Below, in pieces: positions 1,824 to 29,162 of a stretch of 32,000 bases of DNA. How positions within the stretch are numbered: the first letter of the stretch is position 1; each line of letters starts with the position of its first letter. Under the pieces are notes generated by a model, which worked only from the letters and a program-made list of their open reading frames with translations, had not been told where the DNA came from and searched no databases. The DNA is taken from contig JBAXVG010000033.1 of assembly GCA_037129255.1 (NCBI GenBank), positions 158 to 32,157 of the forward strand, read 5' to 3'. A program made the translations under genes and the position numbers. The DNA comes from Desulfuromonadales bacterium (GTDB lineage Bacteria > Desulfobacterota > Desulfuromonadia > Geobacterales > Pseudopelobacteraceae).

Positions 1824-3281
1824 TCACCCCAAACGCTCCTTGCTCTTTGCAAAAACCTGTTCGAGCCAAGGAATGATATCATCAAACTCTTTTTGAAATT
1901 CGTCCGGAATTACGGGAGAAAATGAGTACGAATTGTGCATTTTGCCAACAAATAAATTGACCATGAATTCTAATTTTTTATCATCAGCATTATGTGTACG
2001 AATCTGCTTATAAGCCTGCGAAGTGAACATTTCCAACTGCTGCAGACTTTCAATATCACCAGAATGGTTGGCTAGTTTCATCTGCAGTAGCGACAGACGA
2101 AATGCAAGTTCAGCCCTGTATAGTAAAATTGCTTCCAATAAAAGTGGCTCAAAAAAAGACAAACAGATTTGGCATTTTTTGTAATCCCAGTCTGGTCGAT
2201 TTAAAATAGATTCCATTTTTTGAGTAAAAATACCTAACGCTTCTAAAGCGGTCTTTTCTCCAATACTAAATAGCGGCGCTAATAGCTCGACGATTCGTCT
2301 GTACTCATCTTCAATTATGGGTAACAAGACTGTGCTCTGGTCTGGTAAAGCCTCAAGTAAATGCGAAGGATCATCAAGAAGTCGATCGAAATGAGCGATC
2401 TCATGGGCGCAACCGGTGCTATACCGGGACCAGATGATCTCTGCATCACGAAGTGTTCGAACAGGTATTTTCTTTATACCACATGAATCATTCGTATCTA
2501 ATGGGTCAGACGAGGTAAGTGCAGGATACATGAAAGCAGAAAACTGTTTTTCCTTCGCTACGCGCAGTTTGTCCGCCAAACAACCCACTTCTATAAGCGA
2601 TGCATCCACAGTTACATCACCTGTTGGCAAAATATCTGGAGGCTGCATACCCGTCACAAGTGAAAAAGCACCGAGGTAAGCTGACAGACCGACGGAAGGG
2701 CCATTAATCGTGCATGATGTATTTGAGCGATCAAGAATCGGACAATAAAATAACTGGTTGCAGTGAAAATGTTTCCTCACAAGATCTGCCACTTTCGTGA
2801 TGGATGCTCTGGCAGCATCATCTAAAAAAGTGTCTGTCCATTTGGGTAGTATCTTGCAATTCACTTTACTCGGAGAGAGTCCTATCAGTAGATTACGAAC
2901 AGTCGGAATACCATATTTATTATCCCCAGCAAGCGCGACTGGAATGGCGACCCATTTCCAGTACTGTAGTTGATTAAGAGTGAAATTATCGTCGAAAAGT
3001 TCACCCAAATCTATACGCGTAGCCAACCAATCTTGGAGCAGGTTCGGAGCTTTATCGGGTGCCAAAAGGAAACTAGCAACAAGTGATTGATAATAAAAAG
3101 GTCTTATCGTCATAGGAAGCACATTTTCCAATAGGCAAGTCTCATCTATAAAACGGCTATCATGACACGACCAGATTCCGGAATGTGGATATGGGAACCA
3201 CTGAGATAGGGCTTTACGCACAAAATGAGCGGAGTTAATTTGCGCGCAGATATTTTCGATGGTCCAACTAGGATCGAACAT
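1824..3281 (-). CDS. Lon-like (S16 family) Ser-Lys peptidase domain protein with unknown N-terminal region and helical C-terminal region
   Basis: 485 aa. Residues ~175-250 (FYCPILDRSNTSCTINGPSVGLSAYLGAFSLVTGMQPPDILPTGDVTVDASLIEVGCLADKLRVAKEKQFSAFMYP) align to the Lon proteolytic core (DGPSAG...ALxSxxTG...xTGEIxxxGxVxxIGGxxEKxxAA). The putative nucleophile is Ser196 (codon 2694-2696) and the putative general base is Lys238 (codon 2568-2570). They are 42 residues apart, against 43 in E. coli Lon (S679/K722). No AAA+ Walker motifs seen. The ATG at 3279-3281 overlaps the upstream ORF by 14 nt. Confidence 0.65.
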   Translation of the reverse strand: MFDPSWTIENICAQINSAHFVRKALSQWFPYPHSGIWSCHDSRFIDETCLLENVLPMTIRPFYYQSLVASFLLAPDKAPNLLQDWLATRIDLGELFDDNFTLNQLQYWKWVAIPVALAGDNKYGIPTVRNLLIGLSPSKVNCKILPKWTDTFLDDAARASITKVADLVRKHFHCNQLFYCPILDRSNTSCTINGPSVGLSAYLGAFSLVTGMQPPDILPTGDVTVDASLIEVGCLADKLRVAKEKQFSAFMYPALTSSDPLDTNDSCGIKKIPVRTLRDAEIIWSRYSTGCAHEIAHFDRLLDDPSHLLEALPDQSTVLLPIIEDEYRRIVELLAPLFSIGEKTALEALGIFTQKMESILNRPDWDYKKCQICLSFFEPLLLEAILLYRAELAFRLSLLQMKLANHSGDIESLQQLEMFTSQAYKQIRTHNADDKKLEFMVNLFVGKMHNSYSFSPVIPDEFQKEFDDIIPWLEQVFAKSKERLG

Positions 3282-4227
3282 GGCTTAAAATAAGAATGTG
3301 AAGGTTATCAAGGTTGCTTCCCTCTTTCGTAGCCCCACTAAAAAACAAGTCAAAATTAACATCGTTAGAAGTAAGGGTTACAAGGCCTGCATCCTTGCAA
3401 ACCCCCGATTCATTAATAAGACATCCCATAAGTTGCGTAGTAACATTGAGAGACTTGGTCAGCTTTCCTGAGACCAGGTACCCATCGCCCTGCCATTCCG
3501 AGAAATTGATTTCAATCAGCACGGGCTCAACAGATATTTCATCAGCATTTTTCCGGACATGATTAACCTGTTTGTATTTAAGCTTACTGGAAGCTGTCAG
3601 AGGTGATAATTCAGGTGGTGCAATAGCTGATGTCAAAAACTGAAAAACATCATCAGTAACTTGTGGAAGGTTCCAATCTTTCAATGCATCCTTTATAGCA
3701 TCATAAGAAAAATGCCGTTTACAGTAATTCTTTATTGATTCTGTTATAGGTAACTTCTCCAACTCGCGTGCCGACTTCACAGCCAACTGCACAGTTAGGT
3801 AAGTTCCTACTTCGACCTCCATTTCGCGAAAGAATGAAATGAGTGATCCTTCAGGCTCTGGATTGTGTGAGATAGTTGACGCGAGAATTGTCTGATTCAA
3901 AATTTCTGACTTTACTATGCCCAAACACTTATCAAAACAATCATCCTTTAGCGAATAGCAGTTCCAAGATTCGGCAAAACCGTAACGATCATCTAATGCG
4001 ACATCTCCGCTACCCATCAACTGTTTATCACTGTAGAGTTGTGCCACCTGCCAATCAGAAGTACCTTCAGTTATCTTCTGTGTGTTTAGAGGATGGATGC
4101 TGCCATGGGGTGTACGCGGTGTGTACCTCCTATCAGCAGTGAGGTGGTAAAACGCCGCACCATGATGATTTCCGCATATCGTTTCATACAAGCGCACCAC
4201 AAAACGGCAACAAAACGGCAACAACAT
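3268..4227 (-). CDS. hypothetical protein, first gene of the Lon-like operon (start uncertain)
   Basis: 319-aa ORF with no recognisable motifs. The C-terminal third is beta-rich (ISVEPVLIEINFSEWQGDGYLVSGKLTKSLNVTT...). The ATG at 4227 sits only 4 nt after the T-run of the tRNA-Pro terminator, so the true start may be internal, for example Met71 at 4017. Confidence 0.45.
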   Translation of the reverse strand: MLLPFCCRFVVRLYETICGNHHGAAFYHLTADRRYTPRTPHGSIHPLNTQKITEGTSDWQVAQLYSDKQLMGSGDVALDDRYGFAESWNCYSLKDDCFDKCLGIVKSEILNQTILASTISHNPEPEGSLISFFREMEVEVGTYLTVQLAVKSARELEKLPITESIKNYCKRHFSYDAIKDALKDWNLPQVTDDVFQFLTSAIAPPELSPLTASSKLKYKQVNHVRKNADEISVEPVLIEINFSEWQGDGYLVSGKLTKSLNVTTQLMGCLINESGVCKDAGLVTLTSNDVNFDLFFSGATKEGSNLDNLHILILSHVRS

Positions 4228-16699: not shown

Positions 16700-18841
16700 T
16701 CAAGCGAAACGATAAAAAGCAAACGCCAAAAGTTCCATTTCTCTGATTTCGAACAGAATTTTGAAGGGCAGGTGCATAATCATCCGTTTCTCTGCATCCG
16801 GCACAGATGAGAGTATCGTATCAACCTGCGCCTTCATACGCTTGATCTCGTTTGCAAGCGCCCTGGTGCCCCTGAAGGAACTCTGCAGGTAATAGTCCGC
16901 CTTATCCCACACAGTCTTGTTTCCGGCATTGCCGATATTTATGGTGTGCTCAAGCAGGGCGATGTTGCCGATCTTCCAGATCCAGTCATCATAGTTCTCG
17001 TTAGTCGATTTCAGCCAGGTATCCTTCAACTCCTGATAATTCACGGCGCTCTGGGCCAGGATATGCTCTCGCTGTATCATAATTCCATCGTCCTCATCGA
17101 TGTCGTAATCGAAAATCACGCCCAACTCCTGGTCTGTGTAGTCATACACCATACGATCATACTCGTAGAGGACGTATTTGTAGTTTCCATATCCCAGATC
17201 CCTGACCAGGTAATCCTTCTTATACCAAAATGAAAAATTGCGGACATGCTCAATAATTTCATCCACCACATTGCTTCCCCAGACAAAGCTGCCGACCGGA
17301 CGCTTCCCGATAGTCCAGATTGCAAGTTCATTTTCCTCAATCAGATTGAAGATCGTTGCCGGTCTGGAAGCAAACTGTCTGAATTCGTCGATCCGCACCA
17401 GACACATCATGTAGCGGTCTTTCAGGAATCCGAACAGCTCCTTGTACGGCCTGATCAGTTCGATATCTCGTGCAATGCCGGATTCTTGAATCAGAGAGAC
17501 GAGCTTGACGTTTGCCCCTTTGATCCGGTCGATATCTTCAAACAGGTTTATGGAGGCCAATTCTTCCTTTTTGGCAAAGGTCTGTCCCGGCTCCAACAGT
17601 GACTGTTCGATTAACGGAGTATTAGTGAAGATGTCAACCAGAAGAGCTTTACTAAATACCGATAGCCCCAGAACACTGAAGAGCTGTTTGAACGGATACC
17701 AGGTCTTGGAGGCGTACGGGTCTTTGTGGTTATGGGCCATTTCTCCCGGAACTGCTGTTTCGGCAACATACCTCATGAACACGATGATGTTCCGGAGCCT
17801 GTCAGTCAGGATGGGTATGATCAGTTTTATGTTATCTCTTTGCAGCACAAGTGTTTCGCGGAACACTTTGTTGATGGATTCGTAGATCCTGTCCTCGCCG
17901 GATTCATACCAGACATCTACCTTGCGGTCCTTGTCATCATCGCCGGTAATCAGATCGTTCAGGTACTTTCGGTAAAAGTCCTCTTTCAGCAGCATGAAAT
18001 TCAGTATCCGAATCACATCTGCTTCGGCACTCTCCGGTTTTGGATACACCTTAAGCGAACAGAGCAATTCAATTGTTTCAAACAGACCGCCAAAAAGGTT
18101 GTCGATCTCTCCTTCCAGGTCAATGTCCTTTTCGACCTTCTGAGCGTAGAACATCAGTGTGCTCTTGAGTTTTTCGGTGTTGGTCAGGCGCTTGCCACGA
18201 TCAGTCTGCGAAACGAACAGGGTTCCGGCCAGTTTTAGATCATCCTCGACCAGAATCTGAACGACTTGGATGTTACTCTGAACAAATCGCTTCAGATCAT
18301 CACGGCGTGGAAAATTCGCAAGGTGGCGTTGGAAATAGAGGTATGTCGCCTTTATGCGCCGATTGCTTTTGGTCTTTGCCTCAACCTCTTTGCCGTTGAC
18401 GAGATGCAGGAAATATTCGTAATCCACTTTGCCGGGGATCAGCTTGGGGATGGCAGCGTTGAAGAGGTGGGAGTTGATTTCGGCATCCTGGAAAGCAAGC
18501 AGGAAGAGGAAAAAGGTAGTGGTACGCTGCTGTCCATCGATAACAAAGTAGAAATCGTTGCAACCAGCGAGCGGCTTTAGCTGTTCATGGTTCAAAATGT
18601 CCTGATTGACATATTCGCCAAGCTGGTCATAGCCAACCTTGGCCAGATAGATGCTCCCCAGCAGATAGGGCAACTCTCCGGCCTCTGCGATGGCAAAGAC
18701 CATATCGTTCCAGAAGTCCTCGATATGTTTCTCTTCCCACGAATAAGGGCGCTGGTATTTCGGCATCAGGAAATAGCGGCATTCGCCGAACATTTCGGTG
18801 TAGTAGTTGGAGATTGAGACTTTGATTTTGCCGGGGGTCAT
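16700..18841 (-). CDS. GmrSD-like type IV restriction enzyme (N-terminal DUF262 ParB-like NTPase, C-terminal DUF1524 His-Me/HNH-like nuclease)
   Basis: DUF262 motifs are PKYQRPYSWEEKHIEDFWNDM and VIDGQQRTTTFFLFL. The C-terminal nuclease-like motifs are REHILAQS and IGNIALLEHTINIGNAGNK. 713 aa is a typical size for fused DUF262-DUF1524 proteins. Confidence 0.85.
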   Translation of the reverse strand: MTPGKIKVSISNYYTEMFGECRYFLMPKYQRPYSWEEKHIEDFWNDMVFAIAEAGELPYLLGSIYLAKVGYDQLGEYVNQDILNHEQLKPLAGCNDFYFVIDGQQRTTTFFLFLLAFQDAEINSHLFNAAIPKLIPGKVDYEYFLHLVNGKEVEAKTKSNRRIKATYLYFQRHLANFPRRDDLKRFVQSNIQVVQILVEDDLKLAGTLFVSQTDRGKRLTNTEKLKSTLMFYAQKVEKDIDLEGEIDNLFGGLFETIELLCSLKVYPKPESAEADVIRILNFMLLKEDFYRKYLNDLITGDDDKDRKVDVWYESGEDRIYESINKVFRETLVLQRDNIKLIIPILTDRLRNIIVFMRYVAETAVPGEMAHNHKDPYASKTWYPFKQLFSVLGLSVFSKALLVDIFTNTPLIEQSLLEPGQTFAKKEELASINLFEDIDRIKGANVKLVSLIQESGIARDIELIRPYKELFGFLKDRYMMCLVRIDEFRQFASRPATIFNLIEENELAIWTIGKRPVGSFVWGSNVVDEIIEHVRNFSFWYKKDYLVRDLGYGNYKYVLYEYDRMVYDYTDQELGVIFDYDIDEDDGIMIQREHILAQSAVNYQELKDTWLKSTNENYDDWIWKIGNIALLEHTINIGNAGNKTVWDKADYYLQSSFRGTRALANEIKRMKAQVDTILSSVPDAEKRMIMHLPFKILFEIREMELLAFAFYRFA

Positions 18842-18895: not shown

Positions 18896-19306
18896 TTACA
18901 AGGATTCCATACCAAGTTTCTTTATAGCAGATTTGAACTTTTCGTCAAAAGTGATGATTATAGAATTTTTGATTGCCTTTCCTGTCGCTGCAATCAGCGT
19001 ATCACCAAAATCCGCAACCTTTGAAGGCCAAAATGAGAGCAGCACAGTAAAGTCGGTTTGCTGGCATAACTCTACCCCAGGCATGGTTATAAAATCGCGG
19101 AGCATTGCGTTAATCGTCTCTTTTGGAGTGCCATATACTTTGTCCATGACAAAAACAAATTCAGTCAATACGAACTGATGGCATACAAGAGTACATTTCA
19201 AACGGTATGCTGACTCAAAAAAAGAAGCGACAATTGCTTGCTGGGCCGGGTCTCTATCCGTGACAAAAGAGATAAGAGCGTTGGTATCAATGATGTACTT
19301 TTTCAC
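18896..19306 (-). CDS. vapC: PIN-domain ribonuclease toxin VapC
   Basis: 136 aa with acidic PIN residues in context (YIIDTNALI, VLTEFVFV, DFGDTLIAAT, IITFDEKF). The GTG start overlaps the upstream antitoxin stop (GTGA). Confidence 0.85.
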   Translation of the reverse strand: MKKYIIDTNALISFVTDRDPAQQAIVASFFESAYRLKCTLVCHQFVLTEFVFVMDKVYGTPKETINAMLRDFITMPGVELCQQTDFTVLLSFWPSKVADFGDTLIAATGKAIKNSIIITFDEKFKSAIKKLGMESL

Positions 19307-19536
19307 CGATACTTCTCCAGGCAGTTCTCTCTAGCCTGCTGAATATCGTCGGCAATATTTCCGGCCCCGGTTTTCACGCTTCCTTGATAACGGAGAAAAT
19401 CGTTATGAACCGGATGAACAACCGCCTTCCCATTTTCAACGATCCACTCCAGCGAGTCATTGATGGAAATACCAATTTGTTCTCTCACTGCTTTAGGAAT
19501 TGTGGTTTGATATTTTACCGTTACTGTTGAGTTCAT
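19303..19536 (-). CDS. vapB: AbrB/MazE/SpoVT-family antitoxin VapB
   Basis: MNSTVTVKYQTTIPKAVREQIGI... is the swapped-hairpin SpoVT/AbrB motif. The ATG at 19536 follows GGAGG (the ORF-track M1 is a TTG). Translationally coupled to vapC. Confidence 0.8.
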   Translation of the reverse strand: MNSTVTVKYQTTIPKAVREQIGISINDSLEWIVENGKAVVHPVHNDFLRYQGSVKTGAGNIADDIQQARENCLEKYR

Positions 19537-19555
19537 GGCATCCTCCAAAGGTAAA

Positions 19556-19599
19556 ATTCCTTACGTTTTGATGTTAACGTAAGGAATACGGTTTGTCAA
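19556..19599 (-). promoter_or_regulatory. vapBC promoter with overlapping 12-bp inverted-repeat operator
   Basis: Minus strand: TTGACA (19599-19594), 17 nt, TAACAT (19576-19571). A perfect inverted repeat ATTCCTTACGTT / AACGTAAGGAAT (19556-19567 and 19576-19587) spans the -10 element, the layout expected for antitoxin autoregulation. Confidence 0.5.
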
Positions 19600-19607
19600 G
19601 TGTGGCA

Positions 19608-19630
19608 GGGCGAACGGCGTTCGCCCCTAC
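19608..19630. repeat. REP element (palindrome GGGCGAACGGCGTTCGCCCC followed by CTAC)
   Basis: CAGGGCGAACGGCGTTCGCCCCTAC lies between the RAYT stop and the vapBC promoter. It belongs to the same family as the eight copies listed below. Confidence 0.8.
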
Positions 19631-19645
19631 GTTGACATCATTTTT

Positions 19646-20323
19646 TTACACAATATTATCCGGGTGCAATTTGTCTTCAATCCATCGTTGCGGGTTATAT
19701 GCAACATATTCGGCAATCCGGTTGTAATCGGCATCATTGCGGATAACGTGTTCATGATAATTGCGTTGCCATACTGGTACACCAGGGGAATTGCGGGTTT
19801 CGTTGATACGTTTGGTTACGGCGGATTTGAAACCCGACAACAACGCGCCGATCGATTTTTGTTGTGGTCCAGACATCTGGACGACCGGCATTTGGGCGAC
19901 CGGCCGGTCGCCCCTACGTTGTTTTTCGTCTATACGGGTATCATCCGTTATCAAAACAATTCCATGAAAATGATTCGGCATTACCACAAATTCCCCCAAT
20001 TCAATCTCAGCACGAATTTCCGCCGAATGAATCCATTCAGCAGCAACAATCCTACCCAAATCATTCACAATCATTTCCCGTAGGGGCGAACGGCGTTCGC
20101 CCATGTTTTCGCGTTCGCCCAAGTTTTCGCGTACGTTTTCGCCCAGATTTTCGCCAGACATTTCAACGATCTCCCCAAACAGACATTCCCTGTTGTAAGC
20201 GCATATCGTCACAAAATACGCCCCTACCTGGGAATAATCATATCCCTTTAGACGGATTGAACGGCGATGATGTATATCCGGATTGAATTTCATATCGATA
20301 CCCAACATGCAATTTCCTGCCAT
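19646..20323 (-). CDS. REP-associated tyrosine transposase (RAYT; IS200/IS605 Y1 HUH family)
   Basis: MKFNPDIHHRRSIRLKGYDYSQVGAYFVTICAYNRECLFG, the HUH motif PNHFHGIVLI, and the catalytic Tyr region VWQRNYHEHVIRNDADYNRIAEYVAYNPQRW. Two in-frame ATGs are present (20323 and 20293); family N-termini favour 20293. The gene is surrounded by, and contains, GTAG-palindrome REPs. Confidence 0.8.
   Translation of the reverse strand: MAGNCMLGIDMKFNPDIHHRRSIRLKGYDYSQVGAYFVTICAYNRECLFGEIVEMSGENLGENVRENLGERENMGERRSPLREMIVNDLGRIVAAEWIHSAEIRAEIELGEFVVMPNHFHGIVLITDDTRIDEKQRRGDRPVAQMPVVQMSGPQQKSIGALLSGFKSAVTKRINETRNSPGVPVWQRNYHEHVIRNDADYNRIAEYVAYNPQRWIEDKLHPDNIV
19894..19917. repeat. REP copy inside the RAYT coding sequence
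   Basis: GGGCGACCGGCCGGTCGCCCCTAC is read in frame on the minus strand as ...RRGDRPVAQ... Confidence 0.75.
20080..20102. repeat. REP copy inside the RAYT coding sequence
   Basis: GTAGGGGCGAACGGCGTTCGCCC is read in frame on the minus strand as ...MGERRSPLR... It is flanked at 20103-20155 by short GTTTTCGC(N)CCC half-site repeats that encode GENLGENVRENLGEREN. Confidence 0.75.
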
Positions 20324-20352
20324 GTTCCGAATTCATTGATATATCGTCACAC

Positions 20353-20464
20353 GTAGGGGCGACCGGTGGTCGCCCTGTTGTTGATGTTCGTCCTGATGCA
20401 TCCGTTCGCCAATGTTTTCACCCTGCGATGATATCCAAACAGGGCGAACGCCGTTCGCCCCTAC
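20353..20464. repeat. REPIN (inverted REP doublet) copy 1
   Basis: GTAGGGGCGACCGGTGGTCGCCCTG, about 65 nt, then CAGGGCGAACGCCGTTCGCCCCTAC. Two REPs sit in inverted orientation with terminal GTAG/CTAC. Confidence 0.8.
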
Positions 20465-20596
20465 GATGATGTTTCGGTGCTTGCCGTATTCTTCAACGAC
20501 AACCCCGCCGTGCGGATGGTGCCGGTCTGAATTTCATATCGATACCCAACATGCAATTTCCTGCCATGTTCCGAATCCATTGATATATCGTCACAC

Positions 20597-20709
20597 GTAG
20601 GGGCGACCGGTGGTCGCCCTGGTGTTGATGTTCGTCCTGATGCATCCGTTCGCCAATGTTTTCACCCTGCGATGATATTCAAAACAGGGCGAACGCCGTT
20701 CGCCCCTAC
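20597..20709. repeat. REPIN copy 2
   Basis: Same architecture as copy 1, one tandem-repeat period downstream. Confidence 0.8.
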
Positions 20710-20841
20710 GATGATGTTTCGGTGCTTGCCTTATTCTTCAACGACAACCCCGCCGTGCGGATGGTGCCGGTATGAATTTCATATCGATACCCAACATGCA
20801 ATTTCCTGCCATGTTCCGAATTCATTGATATATCGTCACAC

Positions 20842-20951
20842 GTAGGGGCGACCGGTGGTCGCCCTGGTGTTGCTGTTCGCCCTGATGCATCCGTTCGCCA
20901 ATGTTTTCACCCTGCGATGACAATCATACAGGGCGAATCATTCGCCCCTAC
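20842..20951. repeat. REPIN copy 3 (distal REP degenerate)
   Basis: GTAGGGGCGACCGGTGGTCGCCCTG ... CAGGGCGAATCATTCGCCCCTAC. The second palindrome is shortened. Confidence 0.75.
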
Positions 20952-21119: not shown

Positions 21120-24071
21120 TCAATCTTTTTGCGTATCAGGTACCAGCATGGCTATTATTTCAGGTACTATATCTGTTTTTATTATGCTTAACTTGTCTCT
21201 GAAAAACTTTTGCATAACTTCCTGAGCCTTTTCGTTAATTACTTTCTTGTCTCTTCCTCCTGTCAATCTTGCATTCCATTCGGCATACTTGTACCAAGGC
21301 CAAGTATTAGATTGTCTCCCATAGCACAAGTTTTTATTATCATTCATCTGCTTACGTAGTATTTCCTTTTCTTCAGTCGTCAATAATCCTATATCAATTA
21401 TTCCATAATAGAGATCATCAAAATTTGCTTGCCCTGCTTCAATAGCAATGGTCAGTGTTCCTGGATCATGGCCAGTTCTTTTCCATGTTTCTTTGAATAT
21501 CCGAATGCTAGCCCAGCGTTCCAGTGATTTTGCATTTGATGTGATTTTCCAGCCATCTTTCGCCGGAAAAATGTCCTCTATTGACTTTGTCAGACCATCA
21601 ATCAAGTTATTCATCCCGCCAATAAAATAAACTAAGTCATTGTGATCATTACATAGCGATGAGATGAGTGGTTCAATTCTATTGATGCTTTTGGCCATCT
21701 CATTCAGGTAGTTCTCAAAAGATGACATTGCATCTCCAGCTATAAGAAGCGTGTCAAAATTGCTGCCGCCAGTGATGCTGTGTTTTGGCAAGGTTGCACT
21801 CCAAAACCCGTAGCGATTTTTGGCGTCATGCCCTTGTCCAAAAGCAAACTCACAGGCACCGCACACCATACCAAGTTTATGTTCGAACTGTGGATCAATC
21901 TGCTCATTCTGTCGGAGCGAAATAATTAGACCGTCGAAACAAGGCTTGGTTGGTATGATTTGAAGCATGAGCGGTGGGAGGTCATCATCCTTGGCTCCAT
22001 TATTCCTCCAAGAAGATCGCCAGATTTTAATTGCCGCATTGGGTTCTAGTGACGTAGCTTCGTTAATAACGTTCCAATCATTTCCCAAAAAGCCGGATAG
22101 CAGAACTCCAGAGCTTTCGGTGAATTTTACAACTTCTTCTAGGTGCTTTTTTAGAACAATAAATTCTGGAATCAGTTTATCAACTTGCTGAACTACATAA
22201 TTTTCAAAGCGATCAAACCATAGAGCGACTGCCCCACCGTCAAAATCTACTGAAACTTGTTCTTCAGTTTGAATGTAGGATTTTCTCGCCGTAATGAATG
22301 CCTGGATGGTTTTAGTTTCAAAGTCAGGTGGATCAAGATTTTTGAATTCAATCGCCATTCTTCTTGGGTTGCATTTGAACGCTGCTACAGCATCAAAATT
22401 AGCCACTTTAAGCTTTAGATATATTTCTTTATATGTCCACGGATGATCTAAATTAAACGTGCTGAATATCGCTTTAAACCCGTAGGGCTCTGTTTTTTTA
22501 GCGATCTCAGCTGTAATAAGTCTGAGCCTGTTGTATATATACATACCATTAGAGCATTGCTGGGGTTCTGGTGGAAACAAATCAATAGATCTATTCTGTA
22601 ATTCAGGTATGTTATGACAAGCATGGTCCATATCGTTTTCAAGTGCCTCTATAAGCTTCCTAAAAAAATCGACACAATATTTTACAAATTCACTTCTTTT
22701 TCCTTGCCAATTCTGACTTCTACTAGAAAGTCCACTGTTCCTCCAAGGGGTTTCCAGAGCAGCACACCATACAACTTTATCTTCTTTGGGCCCAGATTGA
22801 CCTTTCACAAGACTGTCTGCCTTTTGGAAAATATTTTCTCCTAAATCGCCTAACTCATACCAAGGTTCATATTTCAAAATTTCAATGTGAAGTTCTTCCA
22901 GTAATCTGACGCGACTTTCCAAAGTAAATGAGAGGATACCTCTAGCTCTGCTATCTTCTTTATCAATAGTTAAGGGGTATTTAGGCACCCATGCTTCTTT
23001 GTAGATGTTTATTTTGCCAAAAAAATGTTTATAGTAAGGGTGATTGCTAGTGCCTTCGTATGAATTAAAGGCATCAAGCCGTTCACCCTCTGGTGCGCCA
23101 ACTTTCCATTCAGGAAACTCTGCTCGCAATTTTATAAAAAGTTCAGTAATGGTTTCAGAAAGAAATTGTCCATAAAGAGCCCATTCAATTAGGTCAGGCA
23201 TGGTCTTCTCAAAGAATGCAATAACATTATCCCCAAAAATTCCAAAAAACTTATCCTCGGGCCAATCACAACGACCGATAGCCAAATGAAACGCCGGTTC
23301 AAAAATTGTAATTTTTTCTCGACGATTTGAAGTTTGAAGTGATCTAGGAAAATTTCTTTTTTGTTCCTTCGAAAATTCGTTGAATGCCCTCTTTAAAGGA
23401 TCATCCATAACAGCACAATCTACAAAAACCGACATTGTCTGGTTGCTAATATTCAATTGACATTTTAAGTCAACACCTGTTGCCCCAAGACGGAAAGGAA
23501 AGAAAACTTCAATTATCCCTCCCCCACAATCTTTGGCTGAAAACATGGAGTTAATTCTGCTCAAATCATTGGAATATTTCTTGTTTAGCACATTGGCTAA
23601 AATCCTTGCTAATGCAAGGTATCCAGACCCAGATCTTTCTCCCTCAGAAGTTTCTTTTCCCAAATTTTGTAAGACCGCCTCGATTGATGCGTTGTAGCGA
23701 GACAATGGATCATTTTCAAGAGCATCGATCCACTGCTTGTTTGAAAGATGGTACTTGAATGCTCCTAATAATTCTGTTTCTTCAATCCGGATAGGTAGGA
23801 TGGTCATGCGCCGTCCGTTTGCTAAATCAACTTCTTTTTCAACTTCAGCAGAACTCATTGAATCTTTTGATACAAGCAATACCATTATTGATGCTTTCTC
23901 GATTCCATCACTAATAGCTGTTGCCCACCTGCCACCTGGTGGGATATCCCGTGGAGCCATCCAACACGAGACACCAGCCCCTTCAACTACGTTGCAAAAC
24001 AGTTGGGCAAGTTCTTTATTTTTTGTACAGTAACTTATGAAAACTTCCTTCTTAACATTTTCATCTGCCAT
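21120..24071 (-). CDS. TIR-domain protein with ~840-aa C-terminal region built from five tandem ~165-aa modules
   Basis: N-terminal TIR domain: KKEVFISYCTKNKELAQ...GVSCWMAPRDIPPGGRW...ASIMVLLVSKDSMSSAEVEKEVDLA...ILPIRIE. The Glu in the xxEV position (probably E80) sits where the catalytic Glu of NADase TIRs lies. The rest is unassigned. AGGGGGA RBS 4-5 nt before the ATG. AT-rich (two rows counted, 35% and 43% G+C). Confidence 0.85.
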   Translation of the reverse strand: MADENVKKEVFISYCTKNKELAQLFCNVVEGAGVSCWMAPRDIPPGGRWATAISDGIEKASIMVLLVSKDSMSSAEVEKEVDLANGRRMTILPIRIEETELLGAFKYHLSNKQWIDALENDPLSRYNASIEAVLQNLGKETSEGERSGSGYLALARILANVLNKKYSNDLSRINSMFSAKDCGGGIIEVFFPFRLGATGVDLKCQLNISNQTMSVFVDCAVMDDPLKRAFNEFSKEQKRNFPRSLQTSNRREKITIFEPAFHLAIGRCDWPEDKFFGIFGDNVIAFFEKTMPDLIEWALYGQFLSETITELFIKLRAEFPEWKVGAPEGERLDAFNSYEGTSNHPYYKHFFGKINIYKEAWVPKYPLTIDKEDSRARGILSFTLESRVRLLEELHIEILKYEPWYELGDLGENIFQKADSLVKGQSGPKEDKVVWCAALETPWRNSGLSSRSQNWQGKRSEFVKYCVDFFRKLIEALENDMDHACHNIPELQNRSIDLFPPEPQQCSNGMYIYNRLRLITAEIAKKTEPYGFKAIFSTFNLDHPWTYKEIYLKLKVANFDAVAAFKCNPRRMAIEFKNLDPPDFETKTIQAFITARKSYIQTEEQVSVDFDGGAVALWFDRFENYVVQQVDKLIPEFIVLKKHLEEVVKFTESSGVLLSGFLGNDWNVINEATSLEPNAAIKIWRSSWRNNGAKDDDLPPLMLQIIPTKPCFDGLIISLRQNEQIDPQFEHKLGMVCGACEFAFGQGHDAKNRYGFWSATLPKHSITGGSNFDTLLIAGDAMSSFENYLNEMAKSINRIEPLISSLCNDHNDLVYFIGGMNNLIDGLTKSIEDIFPAKDGWKITSNAKSLERWASIRIFKETWKRTGHDPGTLTIAIEAGQANFDDLYYGIIDIGLLTTEEKEILRKQMNDNKNLCYGRQSNTWPWYKYAEWNARLTGGRDKKVINEKAQEVMQKFFRDKLSIIKTDIVPEIIAMLVPDTQKD

Positions 24072-24118: not shown

Positions 24119-25798
24119 TCAAACCTTATCAATAAACTCCCTGTGCATCTTCCACGCTTCACTATCAACAAGCTTCTTCAGATTCTTCACCATATCACGA
24201 TCTTTGTTTTTTTCATCCTCTGGCAGTTCACTATACGGTGTAGAACTCAACAAATTATGAAGCTTTCTGGGTTTGTCGGTAACCGCTGCATATCGCCAGC
24301 CGCTCATAAAGCGCTCTGCCTTCCAGCGCCGGTTTTCAAGTTCCGACAATGTTTCAATTGCATCATCCTGATTACAAAACTTTGCAAGTGTATCACCAGG
24401 GTTATCCTCGCATCTCAGCGCCCGAAGTTTAACTGAAACATGGTCAGCCGGCCAACGGTTTGCATCGCGCATGGTTTCATCGAGTTCTTCCCAAGGCGCT
24501 CCGCCACTATATGCCTGGTGAATGGCTTTGGCCAGTTCATCAGTCACCTCATCATGCAACACCTGATACCCGGTGCCAATATCCAGAATATTGAAGCCAT
24601 ACGTTTCAATATTTGCAGGTGAAGTGTTTCCACCTGACACCAGTTTTGAAAGCTGCGACTTCATATTTACTACTATCGGTGTGTTATCGTTACCCAGAAG
24701 TGTTCTGACACGTTGTGCCAGCGAAAGGCCAAGCGGATCATCATCCACAGCTACATAGACAATCACTGGTGCATGGTCTGCTGTTCCCATGATATCGGCA
24801 AGTGACGATATACATTCCGGGTCGCGATCCACAAAACGCACCTGAACATCAGACACAATCAAACCGGGTGGGTTCTTTCCATCGCCATACAGGGCAAAGA
24901 ACTTCTCTGAAACTGGCTTTATATTCCGGTCAAGTACTGTTATCTCCAGATTCTTCCAATCAACGTAATGCCCAACCCGCGCGGCTTGCTTTACTACTGC
25001 CTCCCCCGTCCTGCCAAATCCGATAACCGCAATCCGCAACGTATCGCCGGTGAAACCCTGCTCTATCGCATATTTGTCCGGTGGATATTTCTCAAACATC
25101 ACACGAGAGGCGGTTTCGTAAACATTGAAGATACTTGCGTCAAACGCCGTGCCCTGCTTTTTATACAGATCATGACCGGCAAAAATGTCCCGCAGGCTTG
25201 GACTTGCAATATGAGTGAAACAACGCAAGTTAGATTTATTGTCGTCCGCCTTGCTGACAAGTTCTTGTGCCTGATGTGTAATCTCTATGTTATCGTGGTC
25301 GCTTCCGGTAACTGCAAACAGATATCTGGCACAGGTGATATTTGCTTCTTCCAGAATAACAGGATCGCCGGAATCACCGATAATAACCGTCGCGCCTCTC
25401 TCACGGCAGCCGCTGATATCCGGGTGATCTTTTTTTGATTCTATGACCACAACACGTTTTTCCCGCTTGATATATTCTTCCACCAGTCTCATCCCTTTTT
25501 CACCAAGTCCGCAGATAACAACATGGCCGCGTGACTGGTGCAGGCGGATCAAAGCGTACTTCTCGCAAATTTCCTTCCAGAAGGCCTGGATGGAACCGAG
25601 AGCAGTTCCACCGGCACCTAAAAACTTGGCTATCTTGAAGAGCGTTTTCTGTTGCTCTGATGTTCCAAAGAAAACGGCTGCAATACCGCCGATCAAGGCC
25701 AGTACTGCGATCACCAGCAGAGCAATTACAAACCACCAGGAATAGCGACGGCTCCAACGGCCAATTGTGGAATACGTGGAAATACTCTTTTCTGTCAT
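24119..25798 (-). CDS. membrane protein: N-terminal TM segments, two Rossmann (TrkA-N-like NAD-binding) domains, C-terminal RyR domain
   Basis: TM helix WWFVIALLVIAVLALIGGIAAVFF. GxGxxG with an acidic beta2 end (HVVICGLGEKGMRLV...RVVVIE). Second Rossmann IAVIGFGRTGEAVV...EITVLD. C-terminal LAKAIHQAY...PWEELDETMRDANRWPADHVSVKL and ENRRWKAERFMSGWRY...KLHNLLSSTPYSELPEDEKNKDRDMV match the bacterial RyR-domain pattern. The ATG lies 4 nt after the upstream stop. Confidence 0.7.
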   Translation of the reverse strand: MTEKSISTYSTIGRWSRRYSWWFVIALLVIAVLALIGGIAAVFFGTSEQQKTLFKIAKFLGAGGTALGSIQAFWKEICEKYALIRLHQSRGHVVICGLGEKGMRLVEEYIKREKRVVVIESKKDHPDISGCRERGATVIIGDSGDPVILEEANITCARYLFAVTGSDHDNIEITHQAQELVSKADDNKSNLRCFTHIASPSLRDIFAGHDLYKKQGTAFDASIFNVYETASRVMFEKYPPDKYAIEQGFTGDTLRIAVIGFGRTGEAVVKQAARVGHYVDWKNLEITVLDRNIKPVSEKFFALYGDGKNPPGLIVSDVQVRFVDRDPECISSLADIMGTADHAPVIVYVAVDDDPLGLSLAQRVRTLLGNDNTPIVVNMKSQLSKLVSGGNTSPANIETYGFNILDIGTGYQVLHDEVTDELAKAIHQAYSGGAPWEELDETMRDANRWPADHVSVKLRALRCEDNPGDTLAKFCNQDDAIETLSELENRRWKAERFMSGWRYAAVTDKPRKLHNLLSSTPYSELPEDEKNKDRDMVKNLKKLVDSEAWKMHREFIDKV

Positions 25799-25802
25799 GG
25801 CA

Positions 25803-27581
25803 TCACCCCTGAGGTACTTCTATGGGACGTTCACGGTGCATGAGTACCCAATCGCCGTTCTCGGCCAAGGCCTCCTTGCCAACCGCCAGAATAATTTCCC
25901 GCTGGCACGTTTTGTCATAAGTACCGCTATCCAGCAGTTGCAGGCTTTTTGTGAAAACGCCGTACATCCGGGCATACTGCTTGGCCTGCTCGGCATACAG
26001 CATCCGTTCGGCATAAAACTTCAGAGCTCCGGAAATAACAAAGATAAGCGGGGTAGCAACCTGCATCCAGGGGTCAAGCGTATCCCCTCCCAGTTTCATA
26101 CCATGAATGATCAGCATGGCAGGGGTTACTGCGAAGAAGCCCAGGCGGAAAAGGAAGGTTGATATTGTATCCAATTTTTCAGCTTCCTTTTTATTCCAGC
26201 GCGCTTTTTTTCCGAAATAGTCCCTTTGGTTTTCCAGCCAATACTCGCGTATAGCTGAAAGGTTACAAGGTGCCGCCGTCTCTGCACAACCTCTGTAGGC
26301 CAACAGATTCCAAGTCTTGACCGCGTAACGTATCCAGTTAAGCTCTGACTGCTGCTTGCTCAAGTAGAACGAGGCCGGATTTTCGCTGACCCCGGCCAGT
26401 TGCCAGAACAGACTGACCCGCATCCCCTCAGCCAGAGCACGGTAGTCGAGAAACTTCTCCGGGGCACCCTGGCGATGGGTGATACTATAGATACCGTAAG
26501 CAAGCCCCAGAAAGAGCAGGTATCCGGAAATGGCAAACATAGCTGTGGTCACGTTGGTATAGGTTTCACCGAAGAAAACGATAAACGGAACCAGCGAGGC
26601 CAGCAGCAGCAAGACACTGTAGGTTTCCTTTTGAAACTGTTGAGAAAGAACGTCAGCATGAGTAAAGTAGTGCAGCAGTTGTCTGGCTGATGGTGAAAGG
26701 TCTGCCTGGGTGAAGGGGGGCTGATCTATGGGAATCACATATTTTGCCGCTTCCTTGCGCCTGTCGTCAAAATCAGGAACCAGCCGGTATATATCATTCG
26801 AATCCCCATTGAAAAGTTCGATACAGGCCAGGGTGCGCAGGTGCTCGTCTTCCCGGATTCCCTTCCCGTCATCAGTAAGCGGGTACAGCAGTTGCACCCC
26901 TGCCGGCGCATCCCGTTCTGCCCGGTGCTTCTCGATAAAGTCAACATCCTGCGATACGTTGGAAGCATTTGTTCGCCTGGTTGGAACGTAATAAACCACT
27001 CCGGTTTGCACGGGGTTGAACAGCGATATACCGGGCTGTCGGGAATCGTCAGCGCCATACAATTGCATGCGTACAACGTGCGATGTGCCGCCGGACGGAC
27101 CATTTGTCGCACCGTCCCACAGGGCAATCAGCACCTGACTCTGCTCAACGATGAAGCGGCCAACAGCGAGGTATTGCAGATCCCGTGAAATTTCTTCGGC
27201 AGCTGCCGCTTCCGAATTCCCATTTTCAAGCGGCAATTCGAGCGAAAACACTGCCTGCGCCAACAAGTACCGAAACTGACTGACCGATTCCGGGGAAAAA
27301 TCCTGTTCATACAGTTCCTGCGACATCGGTAACGGCACAACAAGTTCAATACCGGCATCCAGCGCCGCTTCAGCAGCCAAACGGTCTGCTCCATCAGCCA
27401 GGGCAGAGACGAGCATCAACGGGGTACGAGGATACTCCTCATGCAGATGATCAATAATAGCCCGTATCTTTTGCTTCAAGTCAGGTTTATCTTCGTCAAG
27501 GATGTCACGGTGACCAGTGACCCCAATCAGTAGCGGTAATGTGGTCTGGTTTAGTGTTTGAGCGTTACTGGTATCTGCCAT
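25803..27581 (-). CDS. SLOG-superfamily (YpsA/LOG/DprA-like) nucleotide-sensor domain fused to a four-TM region with SLATT-like C-terminal 2TM module
   Basis: SLOG-type motifs are LIGVTGHRD, LVSALADGADRLAAEAALDAG and WDGATNGPSGGTSHVV (Gly-rich phosphate loop). Hydrophobic helices are VLLLLASLVPFIVFFG, AMFAISGYLLFLGLAYGIYSI, ISTFLFRLGFFAVTPAMLII and VATPLIFVISGALKFY. The last pair is preceded by YWLENQRDYFGKKARWNKKEAEKL, as in DUF4231/SLATT modules. The ATG at 27581 follows AAGGAG (the ORF-track M1 is a GTG at 27590). Confidence 0.7.
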   Translation of the reverse strand: MADTSNAQTLNQTTLPLLIGVTGHRDILDEDKPDLKQKIRAIIDHLHEEYPRTPLMLVSALADGADRLAAEAALDAGIELVVPLPMSQELYEQDFSPESVSQFRYLLAQAVFSLELPLENGNSEAAAAEEISRDLQYLAVGRFIVEQSQVLIALWDGATNGPSGGTSHVVRMQLYGADDSRQPGISLFNPVQTGVVYYVPTRRTNASNVSQDVDFIEKHRAERDAPAGVQLLYPLTDDGKGIREDEHLRTLACIELFNGDSNDIYRLVPDFDDRRKEAAKYVIPIDQPPFTQADLSPSARQLLHYFTHADVLSQQFQKETYSVLLLLASLVPFIVFFGETYTNVTTAMFAISGYLLFLGLAYGIYSITHRQGAPEKFLDYRALAEGMRVSLFWQLAGVSENPASFYLSKQQSELNWIRYAVKTWNLLAYRGCAETAAPCNLSAIREYWLENQRDYFGKKARWNKKEAEKLDTISTFLFRLGFFAVTPAMLIIHGMKLGGDTLDPWMQVATPLIFVISGALKFYAERMLYAEQAKQYARMYGVFTKSLQLLDSGTYDKTCQREIILAVGKEALAENGDWVLMHRERPIEVPQG

Positions 27582-27594
27582 AATGATCACTCCT

Positions 27595-29057
27595 TCAGGC
27601 GTTATTGAGGCTCAGGTGCTGAACAATCCTCACCATCGCCAGAGAATCCTGTCCACAGTATTTCAGCATATTCTGCCGCAGAGCCTCACGACGTTCCGGT
27701 GCTGTCGTTTCATGAATCGCTTCCAGAAATGCAGTCTGAGCTTCCATCCCGTTGCTTACTTCTTCAAGGTTGTCGTAGGAGAGGTCAGGGGCGATGGTCG
27801 GCAGTACCGCCTTAATTGACCATGAACCGTGCATATCCGGGTGGTAATAATTCTGGCGGAGCAGCGGCAGCAGGTCGATAATTCGCTCCTGAAGGGTGGC
27901 AAGCGAGGCCTGCAGGTCCGGGTACAGTTCGATCAGAATACCGATAACCATTCGTTCAAAATGTCCATACGTGATAATTGGGCCGACTGTTCCTAAGTCG
28001 GCAATCATTTGATCAGCAAGTGAGCGCATGGGTGGACCACCGCTGATATCTAGGAATTCGAGATGTGTGACAGTATCATCTGGCTGTTCAACATGGCAGG
28101 AATATTGGAACGGAAGCTGTTGGTAAGGGCGAGTGCCGGCCCAGATCGGGATGGCAAACATAATTGTCTCGAAATCGAGGTAATAGCGCGGGAAACCAAT
28201 CTGCTGCAGTTCAGATTGCAGGGCGGGATCTACCTGCGGCTTACCAGTTGAGACCGCATCCCAAATCCTTCGATGTTTCTCGTTAGTCAGCCGCTCCGTG
28301 GGACATTTCGGAGGTCGGTAAAACCTTCATCCAACAATTGAAGTTCAATACGGGTTGCTCCGGGGAGGGTTTCCGTCGGGTATTCAAAGCCGGATTGAGC
28401 GGGTGAACAGTGTAAGCAGTAGGGGCACTCAAAGGGCGAATAGCACTGATCTCCCGGCATTATTTCAGGTTCACTACCCGTAAGCATTTCCCGGAAATCG
28501 CTTACCCATTTCGGAATCTCAACCCTCAGAGAATTTACCTGCTCAGTTACATCCTCTGACTGAAAAAGTCCGCGGTAGTCGTTACCTCCGGGATACACAA
28601 AGCTGTTGTCAATGTGGGTCAGATGGACGGTAGACAGCGGGATGTTATTGCCGATAACCCATGCCTGGATAGAAATGTCCGGAACATGGTAGTCCTTTAC
28701 GGAGGTGGATGATTTGGCTTCGTAAAGTTTATAGGAAGCATTATCCTTTTCGAGAAGATCGGCACGAATCAGAACCCCCTGATGTGAAAATGTGGCCTCA
28801 AATATTCGGAGCTCCCCTGCTTGTACCAACCGTTCCGTTTCCTGAAGCGCCTTGCCGAGACCTTGCTCACCCTTTACAAATTTTCCATCGGGATACAAGG
28901 TTCGGAAAACATCATGCAGCGCAAGCCCCGCCTGAAGACGCTCATTTGTCTCGTCAGAGACCTCGGCACATTCAGGGCGGTTTACTGTCAACCAGAGTCT
29001 TTTTCTGCATTGCAGACCTTCGATTATTTTTGACTTGGAAAGGTTGCAGGGGTGCAT
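27595..29057 (-). pseudogene. DUF2779-family protein (N-terminal PD-(D/E)xK/Cas4-like region, C-terminal RNase H-like region) split by a single frameshift
   Basis: The upstream half (28287-29057/29105) has LSKSKIIEGLQCRKRLW and EAKSSTSVKDYHVPDISIQAWV. The downstream frame is open from 28326 and reads ...ERLTNEKHRRIWDAVSTGKPQVDPALQSELQQIGFPRYYLDFETIMFAIPIWAGTRPYQQLPFQYSCH, the DUF2779 core, before the ORF-track ATG at 28161. The two frames overlap at 28290-28326, so one indel there restores a protein of about 500 aa. Its stop overlaps the RBS of the SLOG gene. Confidence 0.7.
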
Positions 29058-29162
29058 AAGCTTAAACCTCGACACTGAAAGGCTCGGCATGACCGTTATC
29101 GGCACCGCCGTACTGGTGGGATGAGGACTTCCTCCACAAATAAATGGAGGCGGAAGATAATT

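Follow-up and report, generated by a model that had tools for sequence, protein, structure and literature searches.

The window analysed here (32,000 nucleotides of contig JBAXVG010000033.1 from the Desulfuromonadales bacterium assembly GCA_037129255.1) contains the gene of a 983-aa protein (P0001), which starts with a TIR domain and continues with a large appendage. As judged from profile comparisons, this appendage (residues 145-983, which correspond exactly to the window interval 21123-23639) resolves into modules of two domain families, A and B, in the order A-B-A-B-B. This gives the architecture TIR-(A-B)-(A-B)-B for the complete protein, and we named units 1 to 5 of the array A1, B1, A2, B2 and B3. 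Our preferred interpretation, to which we attach a moderate degree of confidence, is that the gene product is a ThsB-like TIR enzyme and that its A-B-A-B-B array serves a Thoeris-like signal generator as the scaffold for sensing or regulation. Within this interpretation, the array would have originated when a portable A-B cassette was duplicated long ago and one extra B was added.

Inspection of the letters by eye (sequence-only reading) had suggested that the appendage consists of five divergent tandem units with the same order of elements. All 18 short motifs quoted for these units are present at the positions where they had been placed, and in the AlphaFold2 (AF2) model all five are built alike, as a helix, four strands, a helix, a strand and a final helix. 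The idea of one repeat family did not hold. When the 983-aa protein was aligned with itself by BLAST, no off-diagonal match was obtained. Smith-Waterman alignments of the units, evaluated against 200 shuffles, supported only the pair of units 4 and 5 (z = 8.0); the comparison of units 2 and 5 was marginal (z = 2.2) and the remaining pairs scored at chance. To judge from the blank self-BLAST, single-sequence methods badly under-detect repeats of this kind. For profile comparison, we cut unit profiles from the family alignment and compared them by hhalign, with column-shuffled profiles serving as controls (scores of about 12-13, maximum about 18). Here, units 2, 4 and 5 turned out to be homologous, with scores of 131-138 for B1 versus B3 (E 1e-21 to 1e-22), 68-100 for B2 versus B3 (E 1e-10 to 3e-16) and 26-36 for the third pair. 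Units 1 and 3 did not rise above their shuffles with the first 12-sequence profiles (score 19.3 versus 13.3 +/- 2.8, E 0.02). With profiles of 30-34 sequences, taken from a search of 1.84 billion representative proteins, the score was 31.9 over 121 columns (E 1e-4; shuffles 12.0 +/- 1.8, maximum 16.3), and the link was obtained again with the 21-sequence family alignment (score 27.2, E 7e-4). Between units 1/3 and units 2/4/5, no sequence signal was detected with profiles of up to 30-130 sequences, since the hhalign scores (10-16) did not leave the shuffle level. Taken together, internal-repeat detection, which had been proposed as a check of the five-unit idea, gave significant similarity within B1/B2/B3 and, with the deeper profiles, between A1 and A2; it gave none by self-BLAST and none between A and B.

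An alignment of 21 rows (units 2, 4 and 5 of seven proteins) contains two invariant Trp residues, one in G-W-x-V and one in K-x-x-W, and it also conserves FD-x-L and T/S-G-G. The W-x-V and I-x-I-x-K-x-x-W motifs that had been read from units 2, 4 and 5 do align with each other, and each of them carries one of the invariant Trp. The corresponding motifs of unit 3 (YGFKAIF, EIYLKLKV) are out of register, and IIEVFFPF of unit 1 pairs with KEIYLKLKV of unit 3 and not, as had been assumed, with MAIEFKN.

AF2 modeling of the whole protein yielded a mean predicted local distance difference test (pLDDT) value of 74.8 and a predicted template modeling (pTM) score of 0.54. The helices that had been proposed to close the units were recovered in this model. 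Three of them extend as long helices across module borders (272-318, 615-662, 779-832) and the only break in the inter-module helices was seen at the B1/A2 junction (459-491, loop, 509-530). Since, except at this junction, each module's last helix continues into the opening helix of the module that follows, the array is likely to form a fairly stiff rod. Residues 141-149, which join the TIR domain to the array, were modeled at low confidence, and according to the model the TIR domain would hang off the array by a flexible linker. When B3 was modeled alone with the 21-row alignment, the pLDDT increased to 95.7 and the pTM to 0.90. Foldseek searches with this model returned nothing significant from the PDB (best E 0.8, template modeling score at most 0.35) or from BFVD (best E 0.16, score at most 0.37), and sequence-profile searches of the PDB with the A and the B alignments were both empty. 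With the full-length model, Foldseek returned only TIR matches and poor alignments to SPARTA TIR-APAZ structures (root-mean-square deviation about 29 A), which are uninformative on the modules. Thus, no known fold was detected for the B module as modeled, neither in the PDB nor in BFVD, which agrees with the earlier suggestion of a large modular appendage of unknown fold.

Could all five units nevertheless be diverged copies of one ancestral fold, A and B being the same domain too far apart for sequence methods? We regard this as possible, although the less probable view. The model gives the same element order and similar lengths for the five units, and when AF2 secondary structure was included in global hhalign comparisons, A2 reached secondary-structure scores of about 34 against B2 and B3, compared with 39-49 for within-family pairs. 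In addition, A always stands immediately before B, an arrangement that an ancient tandem duplication could have produced. However, the global A/B alignments had a negative sequence term, A-to-B sequence scores (12-16) remained at the shuffle level even with profiles of 30-130 sequences, and the hallmarks of B (two invariant Trp, FD-x-L) have no counterparts in A. A and B may share one fold in the models, and a shared ancestry may be argued for only from the common order of their secondary-structure elements.

When the B profile was scored against 1.84e9 representative proteins (cut-off E <= 1e-3), only 71 carriers of B modules were retrieved. We sorted them by local domain mapping combined with Pfam and PADLOC scans. 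The longest TIR proteins of this set (about 970-1000 aa) contain three B stretches in the architecture TIR-(A-B)-(A-B)-B, and shorter ones (about 780-830 aa) end after the second A-B. In a third class (about 600-790 aa; P0039, P0049, P0052, P0034, P0042), the TIR domain is followed by a helical TerB-like linker and by A-B or A-B-B. A fourth class (about 770-790 aa) combines a KAP NTPase domain with A-B; here the N-termini resemble PifA/QatA, and the class comprises P0051, P0059 and P0061 at full length and P0055 as a fragment. The remaining classes are a single protein of 1468 aa without any recognised domain and some 25 standalone B proteins, which range from 160 to 235 aa. The A profile, which was built from the five-module family only, matched the roughly 150 residues directly before B in P0059 (E 1e-5), P0052 (2e-4), P0051 (3e-3) and P0049 (0.014), all values being scaled to a million sequences. 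The pooled regions upstream of B reached an hhalign score of 69.7 (E 7e-11) against A1 and of 29.3 against A2. Because the A profile matches the region directly before B in these other proteins, A-B is, by profile evidence, a portable cassette.

In the five TIR proteins with a linker, two to three helical repeats of about 45 residues (...ERAKLEG...ISPERAKELEE...) are located between the TIR domain and the cassette, and these repeats gave weak matches to TerB and to PADLOC PDC-S48. A homologue search started from a standalone B protein found only the query itself, and an alignment-based search found six proteins. None of 80 generic TIR loci, collected from genome contigs by a TIR-motif search, carried A or B modules. 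Among viral contigs we found no relatives, in the genome of the window no further copies of B, and in 40 related genomes no orthologue of the TIR gene. The latter absence is as expected for an accessory defence island.

For two standalone B genes, sufficient flanking DNA was present. Both are located directly downstream of a gene for a PDDEXK_4 (PF14281) nuclease, with an overlap of 11 bases. The nuclease matched the N-terminal two-thirds (positions ~25-210) of 15 PADLOC models of PDC-S26, with E-values down to 2e-42. B matched the C-terminal third (positions ~225-385) of the PADLOC model PDLC04980, the positions 250-383 of which match residues 821-965 of our protein (B3) at E 3.6e-7 and the standalone B at E 6e-9. 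Because the nuclease matches the N-terminal part and B the C-terminal part of these models, the two-gene pair is, as judged by profile matching, a split PDC-S26, and B corresponds to the uncharacterised C-terminal domain of PDC-S26. This provides a first annotation for that domain; PDC-S26 itself is a candidate system only. In one of the two loci (L087) a second B paralogue is adjacent, and in both of them genes for ClpP and for an AAA/WHD ATPase come next.

The array is less conserved than the TIR domain of the protein. Among 21 full-length members, mean pairwise identity was 58% for the TIR domain, 39% for A1, 42% for B1, 34% for A2, 39% for B2 and 30% for B3. In two loci, the five-module protein is present as two paralogues in tandem (L003, 3861-6830 and 8001-11003; L098, 1152-4130 and 5283-5966), and those of L003 are 54% identical in the TIR domain and 22% identical in B3. 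A similar picture is seen in Thoeris loci that have several thsB genes.

At its N-terminus, the protein has the TIR fold. Pfam assigned TIR_2 to residues 10-120 (E 2.4e-21), and a Foldseek search with the full AF2 model matched the TIR structures BtpA, AbTir, SARM1 and SpbK (Foldseek probability 1.0). No other Pfam domain was detected at E <= 0.1 and no family was matched in an NCBIfam scan of the protein. The gene has no internal repeats at the DNA level, and the list of open reading frames (ORFs) of the window contains no frame of at least 80 aa that overlaps it on the opposite strand. Eleven full-length homologues share 31-61% identity with the protein. In the 12 aligned sequences E76 and E80 are invariant, and both are conserved in at least 90% of 21 sequences. 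In the ThsB literature, the Glu of the W-V-x-x-E motif of BcThsB is assigned as catalytic. The E-V-E-K-E80 stretch of our protein is in register with W-V-R-Y-E of BcThsB, the sequence of which was taken from the tables of a preprint (10.64898/2025.12.03.692087). From this motif register only, E80 is the putative catalytic Glu.

To define the genomic setting, we compared 11 loci, namely the window and loci that were found via homologues and a metagenome scan (window features are given in Table 1). In 10 of them, the next gene upstream of the TIR gene encodes an RyR-domain protein, usually with TrkA_N. A homologue of the SLOG/YspA protein of the window (a gene of about 600 aa) was present in 7 of the 11, and in L099 it adjoins the TIR gene. 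In the window, this SLOG/YAcAr gene lies two genes upstream of the TIR gene on the same strand, and its product is a putative nucleotide-signal-binding effector as found next to the TIR gene in Thoeris-type systems. GmrSD directly follows the TIR gene in eight other loci, in four of which stop and start codons overlap, and DUF2779 is present in 8 of the 11. The gene order of the window (DUF2779, SLOG-TM, RyR, TIR, GmrSD) is found without interruption in L096. Thus, SLOG, RyR, TIR, GmrSD and DUF2779 form a conserved cluster.

Table 1. Location of the TIR gene, its modules and neighbouring features (window positions unless a locus is named)
Feature	Position	Strand	Basis or remark
Whole gene, 983-aa TIR-(A-B)-(A-B)-B protein (P0001)	21120..24071	-	ORF list and translation; 11 full-length homologues
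TIR domain, residues 8-140	23652..24050	-	Pfam TIR_2; Foldseek of full model; conservation
Module A1, residues 150-299	23175..23624	-	AF2 secondary structure; A1 versus A2 hhalign; A1 profile matches the stretch immediately before B in KAP NTPase and TIR-linker proteins
Module B1, residues 300-478	22638..23174	-	hhalign versus B3; aligned with B2/B3 across 7 proteins, two invariant Trp
Linker, residues 479-504	22560..22637	-	AF2 helix 459-491, loop, helix 509-530; 33% mean pairwise identity
Module A2, residues 505-642	22146..22559	-	AF2 secondary structure; homologous to A1 by profile comparison
Module B2, residues 643-806	21654..22145	-	hhalign versus B3; Smith-Waterman z = 8 versus shuffles
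Module B3, residues 816-978, most variable module	21138..21626	-	Single-module AF2; PADLOC PDC-S26 C-terminal match
TrkA_N and RyR-domain protein, directly upstream of TIR gene	24119..25798	-	Pfam; synteny
SLOG (YspA-type) protein, putative signal receptor and effector	25803..27590	-	Pfam YAcAr/SLOG E 1.7e-6
DUF2779 gene, split into two ORFs	27595..29105	-	Pfam DUF2779; ORFs 28287-29105 and 27595-28161
GmrSD-type nuclease	16700..18841	-	Pfam GmrSD_N/GmrSD_C; synteny
PIN toxin of VapBC-like pair	18896-19306		Between TIR gene and GmrSD
MazE-type antitoxin of VapBC-like pair	19303-19548		Between TIR gene and GmrSD
RAYT-like Y1 transposase	19646-20323		Between TIR gene and GmrSD
245-bp tandem repeat, 2.7 copies, REP-like palindromes	20284-20951		Between TIR gene and GmrSD
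Standalone-B loci	L087 6220-8496; L088 2071-3487		B gene overlaps end of PDDEXK_4 gene

Domains that are shared between different effectors of conflict systems are usually sensors or regulators, and modules that travel between three kinds of defence effector show the pattern expected of such a module. In Thoeris, infection is sensed by the ThsB proteins, which bind phage capsid protein (Roberts et al., PMC12578639). SLOG domains bind cyclic ADP-ribose isomers made by TIR domains, and "SLOG and 4TM" is a predicted class of Thoeris effectors (Yirmiya et al., preprint 10.64898/2025.12.03.692087, supplementary tables). It is because of these two precedents and of the sharing of the modules between effectors that we prefer the sensing scaffold. 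A sensor or scaffold role for the array had already been suggested, and it appears plausible to us since the modules also join other defence-type effectors and the gene is part of a conserved operon with a SLOG protein. Mechanistically, the A/B array would be the infection-sensing or regulatory part, which keeps the TIR domains apart or inactive. Binding of a phage-derived ligand by the array, or its assembly on such a ligand, would bring the TIR domains together, and the clustered domains would cleave NAD+ to form a signalling nucleotide. This signal would be read by the neighbouring SLOG protein, putatively a membrane protein, and the genes for the RyR-domain protein, GmrSD and DUF2779 might encode conserved accessory or parallel arms.

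Several observations weigh against this interpretation. The pTM of the full-length model was only 0.54, so that the rod-like layout of the modules is uncertain. The catalytic Glu was assigned by motif register only, and a local pairwise alignment sets E76, not E80, opposite the BcThsB Glu. The SLOG assignment scores 28.2 bits, which is no more than the Pfam gathering threshold, and both "SLOG and 4TM" systems tested in the preprint were without defence in E. coli (10.64898/2025.12.03.692087). GmrSD and DUF2779 may belong to an independent neighbouring system and not be partners. Finally, the modules are moderately conserved and not hypervariable, as would be expected of a structural scaffold no less than of a sensor.

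In line with the last point, the array might be mainly structural, oligomerising the TIR protein or docking the RyR, SLOG or GmrSD partners, and not serve as a phage receptor. The long continuous helices that join the modules in the model, the identity of 30-42% of the modules across the family, and the tight conservation and translational coupling of the partner genes would suit such a function. We consider it rather unlikely, however, as B also accompanies the PDDEXK_4 nuclease and the KAP NTPase where RyR, SLOG and GmrSD are missing from the locus. Because B joins unrelated effectors in loci without these partners, it cannot be a dedicated RyR/SLOG/GmrSD adaptor. Moreover, the terminal B3 is the least conserved module and the one that differs most between tandem paralogues. 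An extension of the sensing-scaffold interpretation goes considerably further, and we hold it to be doubtful. Here, A and B would be new folds that form a portable infection-sensing cassette of at least three effector classes (TIR, KAP NTPase, PDDEXK_4 of PDC-S26), and the array of the TIR protein would be a rigid multivalent rod. This rod would bind to a phage structure with repeated units, such as the lattice of a capsid or tail, and would thereby cause the TIR domains to cluster and to signal.

It is very unlikely that the modules recognise phage DNA or RNA, be it as degenerate PD-(D/E)xK-like domains or as nucleic-acid-binding domains of another kind: the alpha-beta-beta-beta-(beta)-alpha-beta order does resemble the restriction-endonuclease core, A2 has D560 followed by E-F-K (574-576), nucleases (GmrSD, DUF2779) are neighbours and B pairs with the PDDEXK_4 nuclease, but there was no nuclease among 142 weak PDB Foldseek matches of the B model (best E 0.8), Pfam returned no nuclease or DUF4268 match at E <= 0.1, the profile search of PDB sequences was empty, and E574 and K576 are not conserved at the level of at least 90% across the family. 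The same Pfam, Foldseek and PDB profile searches gave no match for the DUF4268-like or PD-(D/E)xK-like fold that the sequence-only reading had put forward as an example, and we dropped this candidate.

TIR defence proteins of bacteria in which a sensor region forms the C-terminus are already known, and the sensing scaffold favoured here can be compared with several described systems. Our protein shares with Thoeris ThsB (types I-XI; Yirmiya et al., 10.64898/2025.12.03.692087; Roberts et al., PMC12578639) the N-terminal TIR_2/ThsB-like domain with a conserved Glu, the proximity of the TIR gene to a SLOG-domain gene, the location in an accessory island and, in some loci, the presence of two paralogous TIR genes. 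In contrast to ThsB (about 200-400 aa), it carries an extra 840 residues with five modules, and its operon also conserves the RyR-domain protein, GmrSD and DUF2779. With PDC-S26 (PDDEXK_4/PF14281 nuclease) it has B in common, which matches the C-terminal ~160 residues of PDLC04980; unlike the TIR array, PDC-S26 has one B behind a nuclease, no TIR domain and no detected A. In the KAP-family P-loop NTPases of conflict systems (PifA/QatA-like), the A-B cassette is likewise C-terminal to the effector domain. By analogy only, the array is reminiscent of the tandem GAF/PAS arrays of phytochromes and phosphodiesterases, in which alpha/beta modules are arranged on long connecting helices beside an enzymatic output domain. 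However, there is no sequence or Foldseek similarity to GAF or PAS, and the output domain of our protein is N-terminal and, in the model, flexibly linked.

In Pfam, NCBIfam, the PDB and the literature that we searched, there appears to be no description of the five-module array, of the A-B cassette or of the links between this cassette and KAP NTPases or PDC-S26. Infection recognition by bacterial TIR proteins is known for few systems only. The data define two uncharacterised domain families, one of which (B) is confidently modeled and yet without a solved counterpart. The carriers differ naturally in having one, two or three B copies, so that module number can be compared with specificity or activation, and the TIR protein is tied to a conserved SLOG/RyR/GmrSD/DUF2779 cluster, which is testable as a unit.

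The composition of the cluster varies between loci. In L005 (994-2802), L006 (1587-3416) and L097 (3-1478), the gene upstream of the TIR gene encodes a protein of about 600 aa with a C-terminal RyR domain only and without TrkA_N. No SLOG membrane gene was seen in these three loci; for L097, where the contig ends upstream, this refers only to the stretch covered and does not indicate absence. The presumed signal receptor may differ between cluster variants. L001 carries an extra 382-aa TIR protein without A or B (2938-4086), just upstream of a membrane-protein gene.

The G+C content of the TIR gene was 39%, compared with 48-52% for the SLOG, RyR, GmrSD and DUF2779 genes. This dip was also found in the closest orthologue (L006) and is absent in more distant loci; the TIR gene may have been swapped as a cassette within the operon. 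In the window, a VapBC-like pair, a transposase gene and a tandem repeat separate the TIR gene from GmrSD. Since these two genes are adjacent or overlapping in eight other loci, the block 18896-20951 looks like an insertion into the operon. Of the two DUF2779 ORFs, 28287-29105 corresponds to residues 20-270 (60% identity) and 27595-28161 to residues 317-499 (71% identity) of an intact 502-aa orthologue.

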